From Escherichia phage bumzen: a stretch of DNA of 64,000 nucleotides. The notes under the pieces are model-generated. The model made no database searches, had not been told where the DNA came from, and saw only the letters and a list, made by a program, of their open reading frames with translations. Both the position numbers and the translations under genes were made by a program. The stretch's first letter is position 1. Every line of letters begins with the position of its first letter. This document shows, piece by piece, positions 36,974 to 49,121 of the stretch. The DNA lies in the sequence record MN850635.1. One strand, written 5' to 3'.

Positions 36974-37294
36974 ATGAGCAAAGTTTATAACACTCGCAAA
37001 TTACAGATTTTCGTACTGTGCCAGTTTATGGCTAAAGAATACAACTTCTACTATTGCGGCACAGGTTTTATTAGCGACGATGATGGTTCATACCTACCAT
37101 TCAAAGAAGCTGTAAAACTCTTTAATGAAGAGAAAAGCTCTAAGAAAGATATTGAAAAGGTTAAGCTAACTTACAGTAAGAAAGATAAGAAGATTATCTG
37201 CCTAGATAACTTTGTAAAAGTTACTGGAGAAGCAAAAGAGTTTATGGATGAGAGTGAGATTTCATTCACAAGCATCTTGAAAGTAGCTCAGTAA
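36974..37294 (+). CDS. hypothetical protein
   Basis: 106 aa ORF. Confidence 0.4.
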   Translation: MSKVYNTRKLQIFVLCQFMAKEYNFYYCGTGFISDDDGSYLPFKEAVKLFNEEKSSKKDIEKVKLTYSKKDKKIICLDNFVKVTGEAKEFMDESEISFTSILKVAQ

Positions 37295-37306
37295 ACAGAT
37301 ACTATA

Positions 37307-37335
37307 AGGGAACTGTAAAGGTTCCCTTTTTATTT
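37307..37335 (+). terminator. rho-independent terminator
   Basis: agggaac-tgtaaag-gttccct then ttttatttt. Confidence 0.65.
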
Positions 37336-37345
37336 TGGAGATGAT

Positions 37346-37861
37346 ATGTATCTGTCAAACCTAAAACGTTCTGCTGCAATGTCAGTGCTAAGACTCAGCT
37401 TTGAGGAACGTCAAGAGTTCATTGACTCCCACCAATACGACCCTTCTAACTCCAATCACATGATTCTCTGGAATCGTGGCAGTACTCGTGAAAGAGCACT
37501 ATTCCGTTACTACCCGCATTACACCATAGATAACCTGTATGAATGTTTTGTTGTGAAGAACACCATTACAGTACTTAATAGACTTTGCAGATACACAGGT
37601 AGTCAATCCTTCACATTAGGCCACCACAAACCTGTTACAAAGGGTGGTGAGCATCACTGTGCAAACTGGTTTATCCAGACTAAACTTGATAATCAGAATC
37701 AAGGAGATAGCCTTCTAAGCACCCCTAAGATGACCTATGAAGAGCAAGAGAAATATATCAAAAATAATATGCCAGAGGTGCTTGACAACAACTATACAGA
37801 TTTGGCAATATCTCTCCTGTTGAAGTTCGAGACAGTTTATAGGGCAACTTACAATGGCTAA
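37346..37861 (+). CDS. HNH endonuclease
   Basis: GHHKPVTKGGEHHCANWFIQTKLDNQNQG matches the HH...N...N pattern of HNH nucleases. Confidence 0.5.
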   Translation: MYLSNLKRSAAMSVLRLSFEERQEFIDSHQYDPSNSNHMILWNRGSTRERALFRYYPHYTIDNLYECFVVKNTITVLNRLCRYTGSQSFTLGHHKPVTKGGEHHCANWFIQTKLDNQNQGDSLLSTPKMTYEEQEKYIKNNMPEVLDNNYTDLAISLLLKFETVYRATYNG

Positions 37862-38132
37862 AGAGAAGTGGGAAATTTTACCATTAGTGAGTGAAGGTGG
37901 TAATGGTTGTGAGATGTACATGATACGTGGTCATGTTCCAGAACCAATTGCACTTGAGATGGTAAACAATTTTACAGATGGCTCTTACAAAGATTTAGGA
38001 GAGCCAACTATAAAGCATCAATGGGTCAAACCTGTACCAGACAGCACAGGTAACTGTAGTGTACTTTATCACGTTGTAGACCCTGCAAAATGCAAATCTG
38101 CAATGGCAGTAACAAACATAACCTTTGATTGA
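37854..38132 (+). CDS. hypothetical protein
   Basis: 92 aa ORF. Confidence 0.35.
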   Translation: MAKEKWEILPLVSEGGNGCEMYMIRGHVPEPIALEMVNNFTDGSYKDLGEPTIKHQWVKPVPDSTGNCSVLYHVVDPAKCKSAMAVTNITFD

Positions 38133-38145
38133 GAGAGAGAAAACT

Positions 38146-39027
38146 ATGAAAACTGTTATTGAAGTCGTTGTCACCGCACAAGAGAAATTCTTCCACACAG
38201 AAAAATTTAATATCATCCAATTCCCATCTGGAGAAATTGGTGGAAACTTCTCTGAAGATTTTGTTAAGTTTACTGAGCGTAATGCTGGTAAGATTGACAA
38301 TGTTATACTTACTGTGCAGGGATATGATAAAGATACACTGTTTGCATTAGCTTTGGCTAAGGATGCCGTTGACAGTCTTGTTCCACATAAATCAGCGATG
38401 AAAACCGTTGTTTTCGGGTTCTTACCGAATGCTCGATATGACCGACATATGTTCAAAGGTGATTCAGCAGCACTGAAAGCTTTTGCCAACCTCGTTAATG
38501 CAATGGGCTTTGATGCAGTATGTGCTCTTGACCCTCACAGCAATGTTGCAGAAAACTTATTTAAGTGCTTTCAGGGCATGAAGCAAAAAGATGTAGCAGC
38601 ACACTTTGCAAGTGACCCACGCATTGATTTCTTGGTAGCCCCAGATGCAGGTGCAGCTAAGAAGACTGAAGAGACTGCTAAAGAGGTGGATAAACCATAT
38701 ATCACAATGTCTAAAATGCGTAACCTTAAGACTGGTGAAATTACTGGTATGCGAATCCTTGATGATGTTGATTTGACCGATAAAACTGTTATGATTCTCG
38801 ACGATATCTGTGATGGCGGTCGAACCTTCATAGAAGCAGCTAAACATCTTCGTGAAGCAGGTGCAAAACGTGTGGAACTCTATGTAACTCATGGCATTTT
38901 CTCTAAAGGTGTTGAAAGCTTACTTGACAATGGTATTGACCATATCTACACTACAAACACTTTAGGTGAAGCTAAAGACCGTGGCTTAACACATTATGGC
39001 CAAGTTACTGTAGCAACCATTGATTGA
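38146..39027 (+). CDS. ribose-phosphate pyrophosphokinase family protein (Prs-like; possible ADPR-pyrophosphate synthetase of NARP1)
   Basis: PRPP-binding signature VMILDDICDGGRT; start set at first ATG (track ORF begins 38125). Confidence 0.75.
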   Translation: MKTVIEVVVTAQEKFFHTEKFNIIQFPSGEIGGNFSEDFVKFTERNAGKIDNVILTVQGYDKDTLFALALAKDAVDSLVPHKSAMKTVVFGFLPNARYDRHMFKGDSAALKAFANLVNAMGFDAVCALDPHSNVAENLFKCFQGMKQKDVAAHFASDPRIDFLVAPDAGAAKKTEETAKEVDKPYITMSKMRNLKTGEITGMRILDDVDLTDKTVMILDDICDGGRTFIEAAKHLREAGAKRVELYVTHGIFSKGVESLLDNGIDHIYTTNTLGEAKDRGLTHYGQVTVATID

Positions 39028-39036
39028 AACTTTATA

Positions 39037-39058
39037 GGGGCTTGAAAGCCCCATTTTG
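39037..39058 (+). other. GC hairpin (ggggcttgaaagcccc) between Prs-like and NAMPT-like genes
   Basis: Perfect 6 bp stem followed by attttg; weak terminator or attenuator/processing site. Confidence 0.4.
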
Positions 39059-39072
39059 AGAGAGATTAAAAG

Positions 39073-40854
39073 ATGACTAAATCACTTTATGCAGTACCAG
39101 CAGGTTTAAACGCAGATGCTTACAAATCTGGTCATGTTTACCAGTATCCTAGTGCAACAGATTACTTGATGTTCAACCTGACACCACGTAGCGACAAATG
39201 GTTTAACAGCCCTTTAGCAATTGATGGTGTAGTGGCTTTTGGTATTCAACGTTTTGTTAAAGATTACTTGATAGACCACTGGAACGCCACTTTCTTTGAA
39301 CGTGATAAAAAAGAAGCAATTGACGAAATCTTAGAAGTTATGAATGGTGTTCTGGGGAAAGATGCTATCGGTCGAGAGCATTGGGAAGCACTTCACGACT
39401 TAGGTTATCTACCAGTTGAAGTGTACGCTGTAGAAGAAGGCACAGTTGTCCCGATGCGTGTCCCAATGATTGTCTTCCAGAACACTGTTTCAGGTTTCCA
39501 TTGGGTAGCAGGTTATCTAGAAGACGCTTTCTCTGCTGAGATTTGGAAGGCTTGCACCATTGCAACTATTGCATTGCACTACAAACGTATCTGTAAGAAG
39601 TGGGCTGACCTCACTTGCGACAACGACTTGCATTTACCTTATCAGTGCCATGACTTTGCTATGCGTGGTATGTCCGGCTTTACTGATGACGCATTCAACG
39701 CTGTAGGACACTTAACCAGCTTTAAAGGGACTGATAGCTTCCCTGCTGTATACACGGCTAAACGTATCTATGGGCAGACCTATCCAATCTCTGATATTGG
39801 AAGCTCTGTACCAGCCACTGAACACTCTGTAATGTGTGCAAACATTGCTTGGGAAGGTGGTAACGAGTTGGTTGAAGAAGAAAGACGATTTAAAGGTGAG
39901 TTACAAACCTTCCGTCGTTTCTTAACAGAAACTTACCCAACTGGTATTGCAAGTATTGTTTCAGACACTTATAACTTCTGGAGAACTGTGTCAGAAATCT
40001 TACCAGCACTTCGTAAAGAAATTATGGAACGTGATGGTAAGCTGGTAATTCGCCCTGACTCTGGAGACCCTGTACATATTGTCACAGGCTATAAAGCAAT
40101 CCACTTAGAGTGTGCTAAGAAGGCTTATTATGAGCACCTAAGCAAGCTGGAAGCTAGTGACACAATGTTGAATGCTGTTCTGAACATGAAGCTTGAAAAC
40201 ATCAACTATGGTATTGCTGGATGGCTACTGTCAGAAGGCTACGAAATGGTTGTTGACAAAGAAGACTTTGAAGTTGCTGATACAGTGATGTTGAAAAATG
40301 CTTATATGGTTGGCTCTGCAAACGTTGTAACACGTCCTGTAGCAGAGATTGATGGAGCTATTAAGACCCTGTACAACATCTTCGGAGGGACTATTAACTC
40401 TAAAGGGTTTAAGGTACTGGATGAGCACATCGGCCTTATCTATGGTGACTCTATCACGCTGGAACGTGCAAACGAAATCCTGAAGCGTCTGTATGAAATG
40501 GGTTTTGCAAGCTCTAACGTAGTGTTTGGTGTAGGCTCTTACACTTACCAGTACATGACTCGTGACACCTTTGCATTTGCTGTCAAAGCAACTCTTGCAA
40601 GCATTGGTGGTAAAGAGATTATGCTTGCAAAAGACCCTAAAACAGATAGTGGTGTTAAGAAATCTGCCTTTGGTGGTGTAGCACCTATGTGGGATGGTGA
40701 TAAGCTGAAAGCTGTAGATGGCTATGGATTCCAGAGTTTTGCAGATGTACTTGACCACCAAGCTTGTGCTTTACGTTTAGTCTTTAGCGACTCTGAGCAG
40801 TTCGGTTATACAACTCTTGGAGATATTCGAAATAATATTGACAAGCAGCTTTAA
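39073..40854 (+). CDS. nicotinamide phosphoribosyltransferase family protein (NAMPT-like; possible Namat of NARP1)
   Basis: 593 aa, recognised as NAMPT/NAPRTase-type by overall sequence character; adjacent to Prs-like gene. Confidence 0.7.
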   Translation: MTKSLYAVPAGLNADAYKSGHVYQYPSATDYLMFNLTPRSDKWFNSPLAIDGVVAFGIQRFVKDYLIDHWNATFFERDKKEAIDEILEVMNGVLGKDAIGREHWEALHDLGYLPVEVYAVEEGTVVPMRVPMIVFQNTVSGFHWVAGYLEDAFSAEIWKACTIATIALHYKRICKKWADLTCDNDLHLPYQCHDFAMRGMSGFTDDAFNAVGHLTSFKGTDSFPAVYTAKRIYGQTYPISDIGSSVPATEHSVMCANIAWEGGNELVEEERRFKGELQTFRRFLTETYPTGIASIVSDTYNFWRTVSEILPALRKEIMERDGKLVIRPDSGDPVHIVTGYKAIHLECAKKAYYEHLSKLEASDTMLNAVLNMKLENINYGIAGWLLSEGYEMVVDKEDFEVADTVMLKNAYMVGSANVVTRPVAEIDGAIKTLYNIFGGTINSKGFKVLDEHIGLIYGDSITLERANEILKRLYEMGFASSNVVFGVGSYTYQYMTRDTFAFAVKATLASIGGKEIMLAKDPKTDSGVKKSAFGGVAPMWDGDKLKAVDGYGFQSFADVLDHQACALRLVFSDSEQFGYTTLGDIRNNIDKQL

Positions 40855-40869
40855 AAGTATATGATAAGA

Positions 40870-40890
40870 GGCTCCTACGGGAGCCTTTTT
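40870..40890 (+). terminator. rho-independent terminator
   Basis: ggctcc-tacg-ggagcc then ttttt. Confidence 0.7.
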
Positions 40891-40907
40891 AATTTCTGGA
40901 GAAGATT

Positions 40908-41429: not shown

Positions 41430-43796
41430 ATGCGCATGGTAAACGACCACGCAGAAGTGATTAAGAGTTCAACTTCTTTGGAGACATCTCAAGCACAGAT
41501 TACAATGACACCTGAAATGTTCAGCCTTTTGAGTTCAGGTGTATACACATTCAAAGAAAGGGCAGTGATTCGTGAACTGTCATGTAACGCAGTAGATGCT
41601 CAAAAAGAAGCTGGAAAAGAGAACATCCCATTCCATGTGCATTTACCTACTCGATTTGAGCCTTACTTTGAAGTCCGTGACTTTGGAACTGGTTTAACCC
41701 ATGACAAAGTAATGAGTTTGTATCTGAACTATGGGGCTTCTACGAAGAATGACTCCAATGATTACATTGGTGCAATGGGTATCGGCTCAAAATCCCCATT
41801 TGCAATTGCTCAGTCATTCACAGTATCTAGCTATGTTGATGGTGTTGTTAATAAGTACTCTGTTTACCTTGAGAATGGTATCCCTCAAGTAACTAAGCTT
41901 ACTACCAACCCAACAAATGAACCCAATGGTTTAGCTGTACGTGTGGCAGTTGCTGACCATCGTATTTCAAAGTTCTTTGAAGAGGCTGGTCACGTATACT
42001 CATACTTTGCTGTGAAACCAGAAAGTAATATTGTATATGATGACGTGTTAGCAGATATGAACGTCATTGCCCGTGAAGAGGGTGTTTATGATGCCATGAT
42101 TCATAAGCAAAGCTGGCGTTCTAGTAGTAACAGGACAGAGTTTAATGTGGTGATGGGTAACATTGCCTACCCTGTTAACATGGAAGCATTACTTGGTGAT
42201 GATTTCTTCAAAATCTTGCCAGAATTTTTCCGTAGGAGCGTAGACCTTGTAAACATCTACATGCCTATTGGTTCAGTTGCTATTGCAGCTTCTCGTGAAG
42301 CATTGCAGATGAATGACACGACAAAAAATGTTATCATTGAGGCTACTAAAAAGATAACTGAAGCAATTACAAAGGATGTTATCAAGAAAGTTAATAGCCA
42401 ACCTACACTCATGGATGCTGCACAGGCTTATGCTGAGTTACGTTTGAACTCACGAGAGATGTTTAATGCTGTGTGTCCAAAGCTAGAGTGGGGAGGTGTT
42501 AAGCTTGATTCTCTGGAAGAAGAATTACTAAACATTCGTCGTGGAATTATCTACGCAGAAGACGGCTCAGTCATCTATGAACGTGACGGCAAAGGTAATA
42601 TTAAGGTTGACAGTAAAGGAAACAACATTCCTAAAGTGGACTACCTATACAATCCAGTTGCTTATGTTAAGTTCAACTCTTTAGAGAGTAAGATTCGTGC
42701 AACAGCACTTTCCTACACTCAAGAAGCAAGCATGTTCAATATCTTTGGTGCAATGCGTAAAAGTCAAATTGAACAGTTTTTGTTCGTGATTAATGACCGT
42801 CGCAATAAAAACGGTACTGAGAAGACTGTAGGACGCAATCAAATCTTGCGTGGTGCATGTCGAGATTATGCCAGTGAGTCGAATCTGTTTCACAGATACA
42901 ATGGTATTGTGTTTGTATTCTCGACTGAAAAAGAGTTAGATGATTTAATCAATCTACATAAACTTGATAAAAGCTTGTTAAAGATTGTGAAGATGTCTGA
43001 TAAGGAACACCATTATCAGCGTAAAGAAGCTGTGAGAGGTGTTGTAAAACTCTGGAAAGCTGTTCCAGCAGAAGGTGTAGCCTCATACACAGAGGTGTCA
43101 GAAGACTTAGACACGATTGAAGAGCCTCAGCTTTATATTAAGGCAGTAGGTGACACAGTTGATGGCGAATGTTTTTGCTCATCTCCAGATGATGTAGCTA
43201 AGTCAGTTGCCAATGTCATTGGAAAGACAGTCTATGTTTTCCGAAAAGCAAATTGGAAAAAGATACCAGAAGACTGGATTGAAGTAGATGAGAAGCTCTT
43301 GAACGACAGCTTAACTGATGTTCATTGGATTAATCATAACAGGTATATGACACGCGTCTGTATGCGTGGTGTCCTAGACCTTACAAGCTGTTGGATTATT
43401 ACCAGAAACTTTACGTTCAATAACAGGAAGATTTCTGATGGTTATTGCTATTCACGGGATACAAACAAAACTATCTTCCTAGAAGGTAATGAAGATGCTG
43501 TTGAGGCAATGTTCGGTAAAATCCAATACATTGCTGCACAATTTGCATACACTTACACTATTAGTGTGTTGCAAGATTTGAAAAGGTGTCTTGATAATGA
43601 TACAAAACTTTACAAGAAAATTAAGAAAGCTGGTGACCGTATGTTTATTAAGGTAACAAACTACTTCTCAAAAAGAAAACAAGAAAACTTCTTGCTTTCT
43701 CATCTAGATTGGAATAAAGTGTCACCCGTCGAAGTAAGTAAGTTCTTAGGCTTTGATGTGAAGTGTGTCCCAGAAGGTACTACAATTTACAATTAA
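41430..43796 (+). CDS. rIIA: rIIA-like protein with GHKL-type ATPase domain
   Basis: 788 aa; RAVIRELSCNAVDA, RDFGTGLT, SNDYIGAMGIGSKSPF match remembered T4 rIIA N-terminal motifs. Confidence 0.65.
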   Translation: MRMVNDHAEVIKSSTSLETSQAQITMTPEMFSLLSSGVYTFKERAVIRELSCNAVDAQKEAGKENIPFHVHLPTRFEPYFEVRDFGTGLTHDKVMSLYLNYGASTKNDSNDYIGAMGIGSKSPFAIAQSFTVSSYVDGVVNKYSVYLENGIPQVTKLTTNPTNEPNGLAVRVAVADHRISKFFEEAGHVYSYFAVKPESNIVYDDVLADMNVIAREEGVYDAMIHKQSWRSSSNRTEFNVVMGNIAYPVNMEALLGDDFFKILPEFFRRSVDLVNIYMPIGSVAIAASREALQMNDTTKNVIIEATKKITEAITKDVIKKVNSQPTLMDAAQAYAELRLNSREMFNAVCPKLEWGGVKLDSLEEELLNIRRGIIYAEDGSVIYERDGKGNIKVDSKGNNIPKVDYLYNPVAYVKFNSLESKIRATALSYTQEASMFNIFGAMRKSQIEQFLFVINDRRNKNGTEKTVGRNQILRGACRDYASESNLFHRYNGIVFVFSTEKELDDLINLHKLDKSLLKIVKMSDKEHHYQRKEAVRGVVKLWKAVPAEGVASYTEVSEDLDTIEEPQLYIKAVGDTVDGECFCSSPDDVAKSVANVIGKTVYVFRKANWKKIPEDWIEVDEKLLNDSLTDVHWINHNRYMTRVCMRGVLDLTSCWIITRNFTFNNRKISDGYCYSRDTNKTIFLEGNEDAVEAMFGKIQYIAAQFAYTYTISVLQDLKRCLDNDTKLYKKIKKAGDRMFIKVTNYFSKRKQENFLLSHLDWNKVSPVEVSKFLGFDVKCVPEGTTIYN

Positions 43797-48335: not shown

Positions 48336-49121
48336 ATGGGTATTGTAAAAATCATCAATGGGGATATCTTCTCCGCATTTGATAAAGGTAAGTTTGATAT
48401 TATTGGTCACGGTTGCAACTGTATGAATTTAATGGGTGCAGGTATCGCTGACAAGATTTCTAAACTTTACCCAAAAGCATATGAGACCGATACAGAAGTT
48501 TATCTGTATGCAGGTGGCATAGGCCACAAACCCTGTGAAAATTTACTAGGGAATTTCTCTGTAGCACGTTTAGAACAAGGCCGTATAGCTAACCTTTACA
48601 CACAACTTCATACTGGTAAAGATGCCCGATACAGTGCTTTAGAGTCATCTTTGAAGAAACTTAACATGTACTGTGAAGTCAATCAGTTGAAGAAAGTCGG
48701 GTTACCTATGATTGGCGCAGGTATCGGTGGACTAGACCCTCAAGCCGTCACAGTTATCATTAATCAGGTGATGAAGAGTGTAGATGTTTATCTGTATGTC
48801 TACGAAGGAGAGATGTACCACAAGTTACGCTCAGGTTGGAATAACTACTGTGAACCAGAATACTTTGCAGGTGTAGTAATGTTCACAGATGATACAGTTA
48901 CCCTCTTCAGACGAAGAAAAGGTAAGATACATCAAAGTAACCCTCCGGTTGAGAAGATGTCTCTAAGTAACGCTCTAGTTACCCACCTGTCAAAGAGCAA
49001 TCACAGAATTGCTGTAACATTTGGTAGTGATGCAGAAGCTTATATCTATGCAAGAACTGATGAGGATATCGAGGCAATCTTCTCTTCACCAGAAGTTACC
49101 TTCTTAGACGCAAAGAACTAA
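48336..49121 (+). CDS. macro-domain-like protein (ADP-ribose binding/hydrolase fold) with C-terminal extension
   Basis: NGDIFSAF...DIIGHGCNCMNLMGAGIA and LPMIGAGIGGLDPQAV resemble macro-domain motifs. Confidence 0.4.
   Translation: MGIVKIINGDIFSAFDKGKFDIIGHGCNCMNLMGAGIADKISKLYPKAYETDTEVYLYAGGIGHKPCENLLGNFSVARLEQGRIANLYTQLHTGKDARYSALESSLKKLNMYCEVNQLKKVGLPMIGAGIGGLDPQAVTVIINQVMKSVDVYLYVYEGEMYHKLRSGWNNYCEPEYFAGVVMFTDDTVTLFRRRKGKIHQSNPPVEKMSLSNALVTHLSKSNHRIAVTFGSDAEAYIYARTDEDIEAIFSSPEVTFLDAKN

Follow-up and report, generated by a model that had tools for sequence, protein, structure and literature searches.

We analysed a 64,000-nucleotide stretch of Escherichia phage bumzen (sequence record MN850635.1; this whole stretch is the window below), with a focus on two adjacent genes, adps and namat, whose protein families match those of the NARP1 system for reconstitution of nicotinamide adenine dinucleotide (NAD+). 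The two genes are co-oriented on the + strand and 45 bp apart, just as an earlier note on this DNA had described (Table 1). The listed open reading frame (ORF) that contains adps spans 38125-39027 (+ strand), and translation from the ATG at 38146 gives the 293-aa product. A Shine-Dalgarno-like run, GAGAGAGAG, lies upstream of this ATG, and the letters that precede it, GAGAGAGAGAAAAC, are compatible with a ribosome-binding site. By their Pfam and PHROG profile matches, both genes are genuine genes and not chance ORFs. Adps matched PF00156, PF14572 and phrog_619 ('ribose-phosphate pyrophosphokinase', E 1.5e-97), and Namat matched PF04095 and phrog_448 ('nicotinamide phosphoribosyl transferase', E 6e-202). 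The locus thus has the gene context that defines NARP1, an adjacent and co-oriented pair of Prs-family and NAMPT-family genes; in the published survey, Namat adjoins 97% of Adps-clade genes (bioRxiv 10.1101/2024.02.11.579819).

Table 1 Features of the adps-namat locus and its surroundings (positions in the window; aa, amino acids).
Feature	Position	Strand	Basis or remark
Terminator-like hairpin and T-run, ends the preceding transcription unit	37306-37328	+	9-bp stem, then TTTATTTT; -12.4 kcal/mol, z -2.1
171-aa gene, phrog_3500, weak HNH-like match	37346-37861	+	Ortholog of bas63_0077
92-aa gene, phrog_4726, immediately 5' of adps	37854-38132	+	Ortholog of bas63_0078
adps: predicted ADP-ribose pyrophosphokinase, Prs family, 293 aa	38146-39027	+	Orthology, profiles, Lys190
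Intergenic GC hairpin: 6-bp stem, GAAA-type loop, then AUUUU	39037-39052	+	Sequence and RNA folding
namat: predicted nicotinamide ADP-ribose transferase, NAMPT family, 593 aa	39073-40854	+	Orthology, PDB sequence and fold matches
Selectivity-clamp loop of Namat, residues ~40-48, SDKWFNSPL	39190-39216	+	Lys42-Trp43 in sequence
Large insertion subdomain of Namat, residues ~341-427 (72-77 aa beyond the short loop)	40093-40353	+	Alignment
Selectivity-clamp helix signature of Namat, GSYTYQYMTRD, residues 488-498	40534-40566	+	Aromatics at motif positions 3 and 7
Terminator-like hairpin and T-run, closes the unit after namat	40866-40889	+	-16.6 kcal/mol, z -3.9
261-aa protein with N-terminal Macro domain (PF01661)	48336-49121	+	tblastn, Pfam; ortholog of bas63_0095

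A megablast search of phage genomes with positions 37300-40900 as the query matched 258 phage records, and in 232 of these the match extends over 80% or more of the query. The matches are mostly phages of Escherichia, Salmonella and Shigella, and every record that we inspected belongs to the Ounavirinae, mostly to the genus Felixounavirus. Shigella phage JK55 was the best DNA match (99.4%), and its protein JK55_00121 is 100% identical to the Adps of the window; Escherichia phage JohannRWettstein (Bas63) matched at 95.7%. Adps shares 281 of 293 residues (96%) with bas63_0079 and Namat shares 584 of 593 (98%) with bas63_0080, in both cases at the same length and without gaps. The window and Bas63 have the same gene order (nrdD, small genes, nrdG, small genes, adps-namat, two small genes, rIIA, rIIB), and they also agree in genus, gene lengths, the 45-bp spacer, the hairpin within it and the flanking genes. 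They differ by 12 substitutions in Adps and 9 in Namat, none of which falls at a catalytic or clamp position that we checked.

Genes 79-80 of Bas63 are the pair from which Osterman et al. defined NARP1 (Adps plus Namat) by deletion and metabolomics. Without these genes, plaquing of Bas63 on SIR2-HerA cells was ~20-fold lower. Wild-type Bas63 reduced NAD+ depletion, also in a host without pncC and nadR, and ADP-ribose pyrophosphate (ADPR-PP) was detected in vivo only when the Bas63 operon and the defence system were both present (all in bioRxiv 10.1101/2024.02.11.579819). Judged by its sequence, the window operon is effectively the same system as Bas63 NARP1, which is already known and published. 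We conclude that the pair is very probably the NARP1 operon of a Felixounavirus. The earlier note had proposed NARP1-type counter-defence in preference to salvage through nicotinamide mononucleotide (NMN), and the 96% and 98% identity to the Bas63 operon, together with a clamp signature in Namat, bears that proposal out.

Assignment of the first gene product draws mainly on orthology. Its loop of the type that binds phosphoribosyl pyrophosphate (PRPP), LDDICDGGRT, which had been noticed before, occupies residues 218-227. Indirectly, its sequence identity (96%) to Bas63 Adps, a query and defining member of the phage Adps clade, makes it very probable that this protein belongs to that clade. The Adps of Bacillus phage SPbetaL1 is 34% identical (95 bits), and its K162, the lysine that was mutated as an active-site residue and is equivalent to K197 of B. 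subtilis Prs, aligns with Lys190 of the window protein (KMRNLKTGEI / KQRNFHTGEI, with K-x-R-N-x-x-T-G-E-I in common). Matches to solved Prs structures reached only 53-69 bits, with E. coli Prs at 53 bits. The NCBIfam equivalog models for Prs gave 47-112 bits at cut-offs of 296-536 bits, so that all of them failed, including the best one (NF002095, where the score of 112 stays below the 296-bit cut-off); the only NCBIfam model that Adps passed is the broad subfamily TIGR01251 (136.5 versus 113 bits). NCBIfam returned only Prs and NAPRTase names and no curated models for Adps or Namat. Our literature search found no published sequence or structural rule that separates Adps from Prs, and the family evidence for Adps is therefore thinner than that for Namat.

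For Namat such rules have been published. The selectivity-clamp helix (SCH) of Namats follows the motif GSxPhixPhixPhiTRD, whose positions 3 and 7 are aromatic (PMC12774641), and the window protein carries this signature. The corresponding region reads GSFTYQYNTRD in SPbetaL1 Namat, GAQTYQRNTRD in the true Nampt of H. ducreyi (HdNadV) and GGALLQKVDRD in that of Xanthomonas (Xcc), and the signature is absent from the latter two. In the selectivity-clamp loop (SCL), the third residue is Arg, or else Lys or Tyr accompanied by a stacking fourth residue, for stacking on adenine (PMC12774641). The window SCL reads S40-D41-K42-W43, identical to the arrangement that the same paper describes for Bas63, and Trp43, its fourth residue, is the predicted adenine-stacking residue; in SPbetaL1, by contrast, Arg40 of the SCL stacks on adenine. 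The core residues D15, Y17, F195, R198, D221, H251, R327 and D329 are all present and are invariant in an alignment of 30 homologs, with D13, Y15, F189, R192, D215, the catalytic His, R306 and D308 as their equivalents in SPbetaL1. The NAD+-contacting positions listed for SPbetaL1 Namat are all kept or conservatively replaced in the window protein (F392 to Y490, A362 to S460).

Structure comparison gave the same ranking. The top PDB sequence matches of the window protein were the SPbetaL1 Namat structures 9W5W and 9W5X (E 6e-128), ahead of HdNadV (8e-104), Xcc Nampt (2e-52) and mammalian NAMPT (~1e-40). An AlphaFold2 model of the protein (pLDDT 93.2, pTM 0.91) had 9W5X as its best fold match (E 1e-54, TM 0.95 over the SPbetaL1 chain), with HdNadV and mammalian NAMPT ranked lower. 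Profile and structure comparison against Adps and Namat on the one hand and true Prs and NadV on the other, one of the checks that had been suggested for this pair, came out for NARP1 with SPbetaL1 Namat as the best match and the Prs equivalog cut-offs failed. Large chromosomal contigs from Klebsiella, Cronobacter, Kosakonia, Erwinia and Phytobacter also encode Namat-like proteins of 495-496 aa with GS[YF]TYQYNTRD that are 46-48% identical to the window Namat over the alignable parts, consistent with reported bacterial NARP1 homologs.

The names of the matching Pfam, PHROG and NCBIfam profiles all fit conventional salvage, in which a true Prs makes PRPP, a NadV/NAMPT enzyme makes NMN from it and host NadR or PncC completes NAD+, and this is how most GenBank records annotate the pair. 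Namat also scores above the equivalog cut-off of the NCBIfam 'nicotinate phosphoribosyltransferase' model (469 versus 405 bits), and in vitro SPbetaL1 Namat turns PRPP into NMN about half as fast as human Nampt does (PMC12774641). However, Adps falls far under every Prs equivalog threshold, and Namat has the clamp motif that true Nampts lack. Functional work on relatives points the same way. The SPbetaL1 Prs homolog pyrophosphorylated ADP-ribose (ADPR) in vitro yet gave no Prs-type product (Figure 2D, ribose-5-phosphate versus ADPR; bioRxiv 10.1101/2024.02.11.579819), and wild-type Bas63 overcame SIR2-HerA in the host without pncC and nadR, the two host genes named in the salvage route (same reference). 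We therefore regard conventional salvage as a highly improbable account of the pair. Cellular Prs (E. coli 4S2U), NadV (H. ducreyi 9KE8) and human NAMPT do share their folds and catalytic chemistry with the NARP1 enzymes, namely pyrophosphoryl transfer from ATP to ribose C1 and attack of nicotinamide on the C1-pyrophosphate. They differ in their substrates, which are ribose-5-phosphate and PRPP in place of the ADP-ribose and ADPR-PP of NARP1, and the true Nampts are without the aromatic clamp residues.

A second alternative is NARP2-type or general boosting of NAD+, in which a NAMPT-like enzyme and an NMN adenylyltransferase (Nmnat) raise NAD+ from PRPP for phage metabolism, independently of any defence. 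Phage pairs of Nampt and Nmnat exist, as in Vibrio phage KVP40, and also defeat NAD+ depletion (bioRxiv 10.1101/2024.02.11.579819), and the window operon does sit among nucleotide-metabolism genes, with nrdD and nrdG upstream. A NARP2 system is recognised by an Nmnat partner and the lack of Adps. Here Adps is present, Pfam and PHROG profiles found no Nmnat-like or other nucleotidyltransferase domain in the seven flanking small ORFs, and no Nmnat is annotated in the inspected parts of the JK55 and Bas63 records. Moreover, Adps-linked Namats form a different clade from Adps-less homologs, NARP2-type Nampts among them, and ADPR-PP is seen only with an active NADase defence (bioRxiv 10.1101/2024.02.11.579819). 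NARP2 of KVP40 thus resembles the window system in that a phage enzyme of the NAMPT family restores NAD+ against NADase defences, but it works from PRPP and ATP through NMN, needs the Nmnat partner, has no Adps and uses a Nampt of a separate clade. These observations make a NARP2-type or general NAD+-boosting role for the pair extremely improbable.

If the window pair acts as a NARP1 operon, the pathway would begin with an NADase defence (SIR2-HerA/Nezha, type I Thoeris, DSR1/2, SEFIR or similar) that splits NAD+ into ADP-ribose and nicotinamide. Adps, a diverged homolog of PRPP synthetase, would then move pyrophosphate from ATP to the ribose C1'' of ADP-ribose to yield ADPR-PP. Namat, a diverged NAMPT, would join nicotinamide to ADPR-PP through its conserved phosphoribosyltransferase core and so form NAD+ directly. 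Binding of adenine by the clamp, that is, the K42-W43 loop together with the GSYTYQYMTRD helix motif, would make Namat prefer ADPR-PP over PRPP. In this scheme the gene structure, the near-identity to Bas63, the residues and the fold come from our analysis, and the chemistry and the anti-defence phenotype come from the literature on orthologs and homologs. Nothing in the sequence contradicts activity (both frames are intact, with ribosome-binding sites and conserved catalytic residues in place), and we infer that the window copy is expressed early and active.

Several points weigh against the assignment to NARP1. The in vitro activities come from the SPbetaL1 enzymes, whose identity to those of the window is 34% for Adps and ~42% for Namat and which lack the ~75-aa insertion described below; SPbetaL1 was used because Bas63 Adps purified poorly (bioRxiv 10.1101/2024.02.11.579819), and formation of NAD+ from ADPR-PP and nicotinamide in vitro has been reported only for the SPbetaL1 and P. 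foliorum Namats (bioRxiv 10.1101/2024.02.11.579819; PMC12774641). SPbetaL1 Namat retains its PRPP-to-NMN side activity (PMC12774641), and some conventional salvage by the window Namat therefore stays plausible. The protection of Bas63 against SIR2-HerA was partial, ~20-fold (bioRxiv 10.1101/2024.02.11.579819). Finally, the predicted membership of the first protein in the Adps family draws on its orthology, its gene context and a single catalytic residue. The SPbetaL1 system resembles that of the window in its adjacent adps and namat genes, the Adps lysine (K162/K190), the Namat core and the SCH motif.

The window Namat differs from the SPbetaL1 enzyme in length. It has 593 aa, compared with 491 aa in SPbetaL1 Namat (9W5W/9W5X, PMC12774641) and 491-496 aa across SPbetaL1 Namat, HdNadV and many bacterial homologs; the surplus of about 100 aa over typical forms, already remarked on in the earlier note, resides in two internal insertions. 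The smaller, likewise missing from SPbetaL1 Namat, follows the catalytic His region and adds ~15 aa (near residues 258-272). The larger lies after the RPDSGDPV strand, and its conserved GYEMVVD..ED core is common to Ounavirinae-type homologs down to ~46% identity. In the AlphaFold2 model it forms a small, confidently predicted alpha/beta module, and no fold relative of this ~75-aa subdomain was detectable. In other lineages this loop holds differing inserts, 0-78 aa in length, and it is therefore an insertion hot spot; further long forms are found in Erwinia phage phiEa104 (609 aa) and in Pseudomonas phage PaGz-1 (562 aa). We considered an intein or mobile-element origin for the insertion and rejected it: intein-type motifs are missing, and the segment folds as part of the enzyme. 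The published paper in Nucleic Acids Research aligned and modelled Bas63 Namat, and its text does not discuss the insertion. Since the subdomain, which is specific to the Ounavirinae, folds confidently and has no detectable fold relative, it may add a regulatory or partner-binding function.

The spacer between the two genes is a further difference from SPbetaL1, in which adps and namat abut with neither spacer nor hairpin. In the window it contains GGGGCTTGAAAGCCCC at 39037-39052, followed by ATTTTGAGAG, and the GC hairpin that had been seen there earlier is indeed present. For the RNA of the 45-nt spacer the folding energy is -12.6 kcal/mol (z = -2.6 versus shuffles), and the hairpin is invariant in Bas63 and JK55. 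The record of phage AYO145A annotates it as a rho-independent terminator; our stricter terminator scan missed it because only 4 T follow. Between adps and namat it may terminate transcription weakly or in part, or else affect the stability of the RNA. In Escherichia phage LinBro (OR896830, 2035-2526), a gene for a 163-aa HNH endonuclease is inserted in the spacer (equivalent to 39028-39072 of the window), and both adps and namat are intact despite it. The spacer appears to be a homing site within the genus Felixounavirus.

We also considered accessory genes in the surroundings of the pair. The same Pfam and PHROG profile searches found neither the Macro domain of the phosphatase Adpp nor the RyR domain (PF02026) of the cADPR glycosidase RyDEP in the seven flanking small ORFs. 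In the window, no Macro gene lies within two genes of the pair, the arrangement by which NARP1-AP is recognised, and the NARP1 + RyDEP arrangement is likewise absent. However, tblastn with the Macro protein that adjoins NARP1 in PaGz-1 matched the window at the 261-aa Macro gene of Table 1 (30% identity, E 4.5e-20), 7.5 kb and ~14 genes downstream of the NARP1 pair. This protein has a C-terminal region of ~100 aa that gave no Pfam match, and its ortholog bas63_0095 is annotated 'putative phosphatase'. The Macro protein encoded between Adps and Namat in Vibrio phage Brizo shares 29% identity with it (E 4e-15), and the Brizo layout (Adps-Macro-Namat) matches that of the characterised NARP1-AP operon in Vibrio phage Gary.

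The window therefore shares with NARP1-AP (Adps-Adpp-Namat; Gary and relatives, bioRxiv 10.64898/2026.01.28.702374) the Adps and Namat families and a homologous Macro protein, but its Macro gene lies outside the operon and its product has the additional ~100-aa C-terminal region. Since the NARP1-AP survey looked no further than two genes to each side of NARP1 (bioRxiv 10.64898/2026.01.28.702374), the Macro gene of the window would have gone uncounted in it. It is conceivable, if rather doubtful, that Felixounaviruses run an extended NARP1-AP pathway in trans, in which the distal Macro protein would dephosphorylate ADPR-1''-phosphate to ADP-ribose for Adps and Namat and so give resistance to RES-type (aRES) NAD+ depletion as well. 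Macro-family proteins are very widespread among phages, T4-like ones included (2798 records), and co-occurrence of Macro and NARP1 genes alone therefore proves nothing.

At the boundaries of the operon, the earlier note had placed the pair between terminators at 37307 and 40870. Terminator-like hairpins do lie at both places, and the AYO145A record annotates a terminator at the position that matches the upstream one. However, the pair is not alone between them: two small co-oriented genes sit between the upstream terminator and adps, so the unit between the terminators comprises four genes. The product of the first, of 171 aa, also matches the HNH endonuclease family phrog_2214 (E 2e-4), contains the stretch GHHKPVTKGGEHHCANW and may be a degenerate HNH protein. 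We found no evidence in ORFs or in Pfam and PHROG profiles that links either this gene or its 92-aa neighbour to NARP1.

Both hairpins adjoin promoter-like hexamers. A strong promoter-like site (TTGACA-16-TATGAT, 40838-40865; 11/12 match) abuts the downstream hairpin, and AYO145A has a promoter annotated at the equivalent site. Sigma-70-like hexamers (TTGAAA-17-TACTAT) likewise stand immediately before the upstream hairpin (stretch 37277-37328). Transcripts from either pair of hexamers would start inside the adjoining hairpin, and each site may combine a terminator with a promoter, or else provide a stem-loop that stabilises the 5' end. Further downstream, rIIA is a single intact 788-aa ORF in the window (41430-43796, + strand), whereas JK55 annotates two coding sequences (1-1101 and 1095-2366; positions 1-2366 of its record were compared). 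The window also crosses the start/end point of the JK55 record. From these two observations, the window genome is differently permuted or slightly different from JK55. A tRNA scan of the whole window found no tRNAs.

The idea behind NARP1 is that a phage mends metabolic damage, rebuilding NAD+ from the cleavage products of a defence instead of blocking the defence protein, and that it therefore defeats many unrelated NADase systems at once. As a copy with 96-98% identity to the founding operon, the window operon adds nothing to this concept. Its practical value lies in annotation: JK55 and other public records read 'ribose-phosphate pyrophosphokinase' and 'nicotinic acid/nicotinamide phosphoribosyltransferase' for proteins that should be called Adps and Namat. 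Beyond the known system, the window offers two modest leads, the Namat insertion specific to the Ounavirinae and the distal Macro-domain gene with its possible extension of the pathway to ADPR-1''-phosphate. If it is true, a Macro pathway that acts in trans would let Felixounaviruses resist NAD+ depletion by aRES too.

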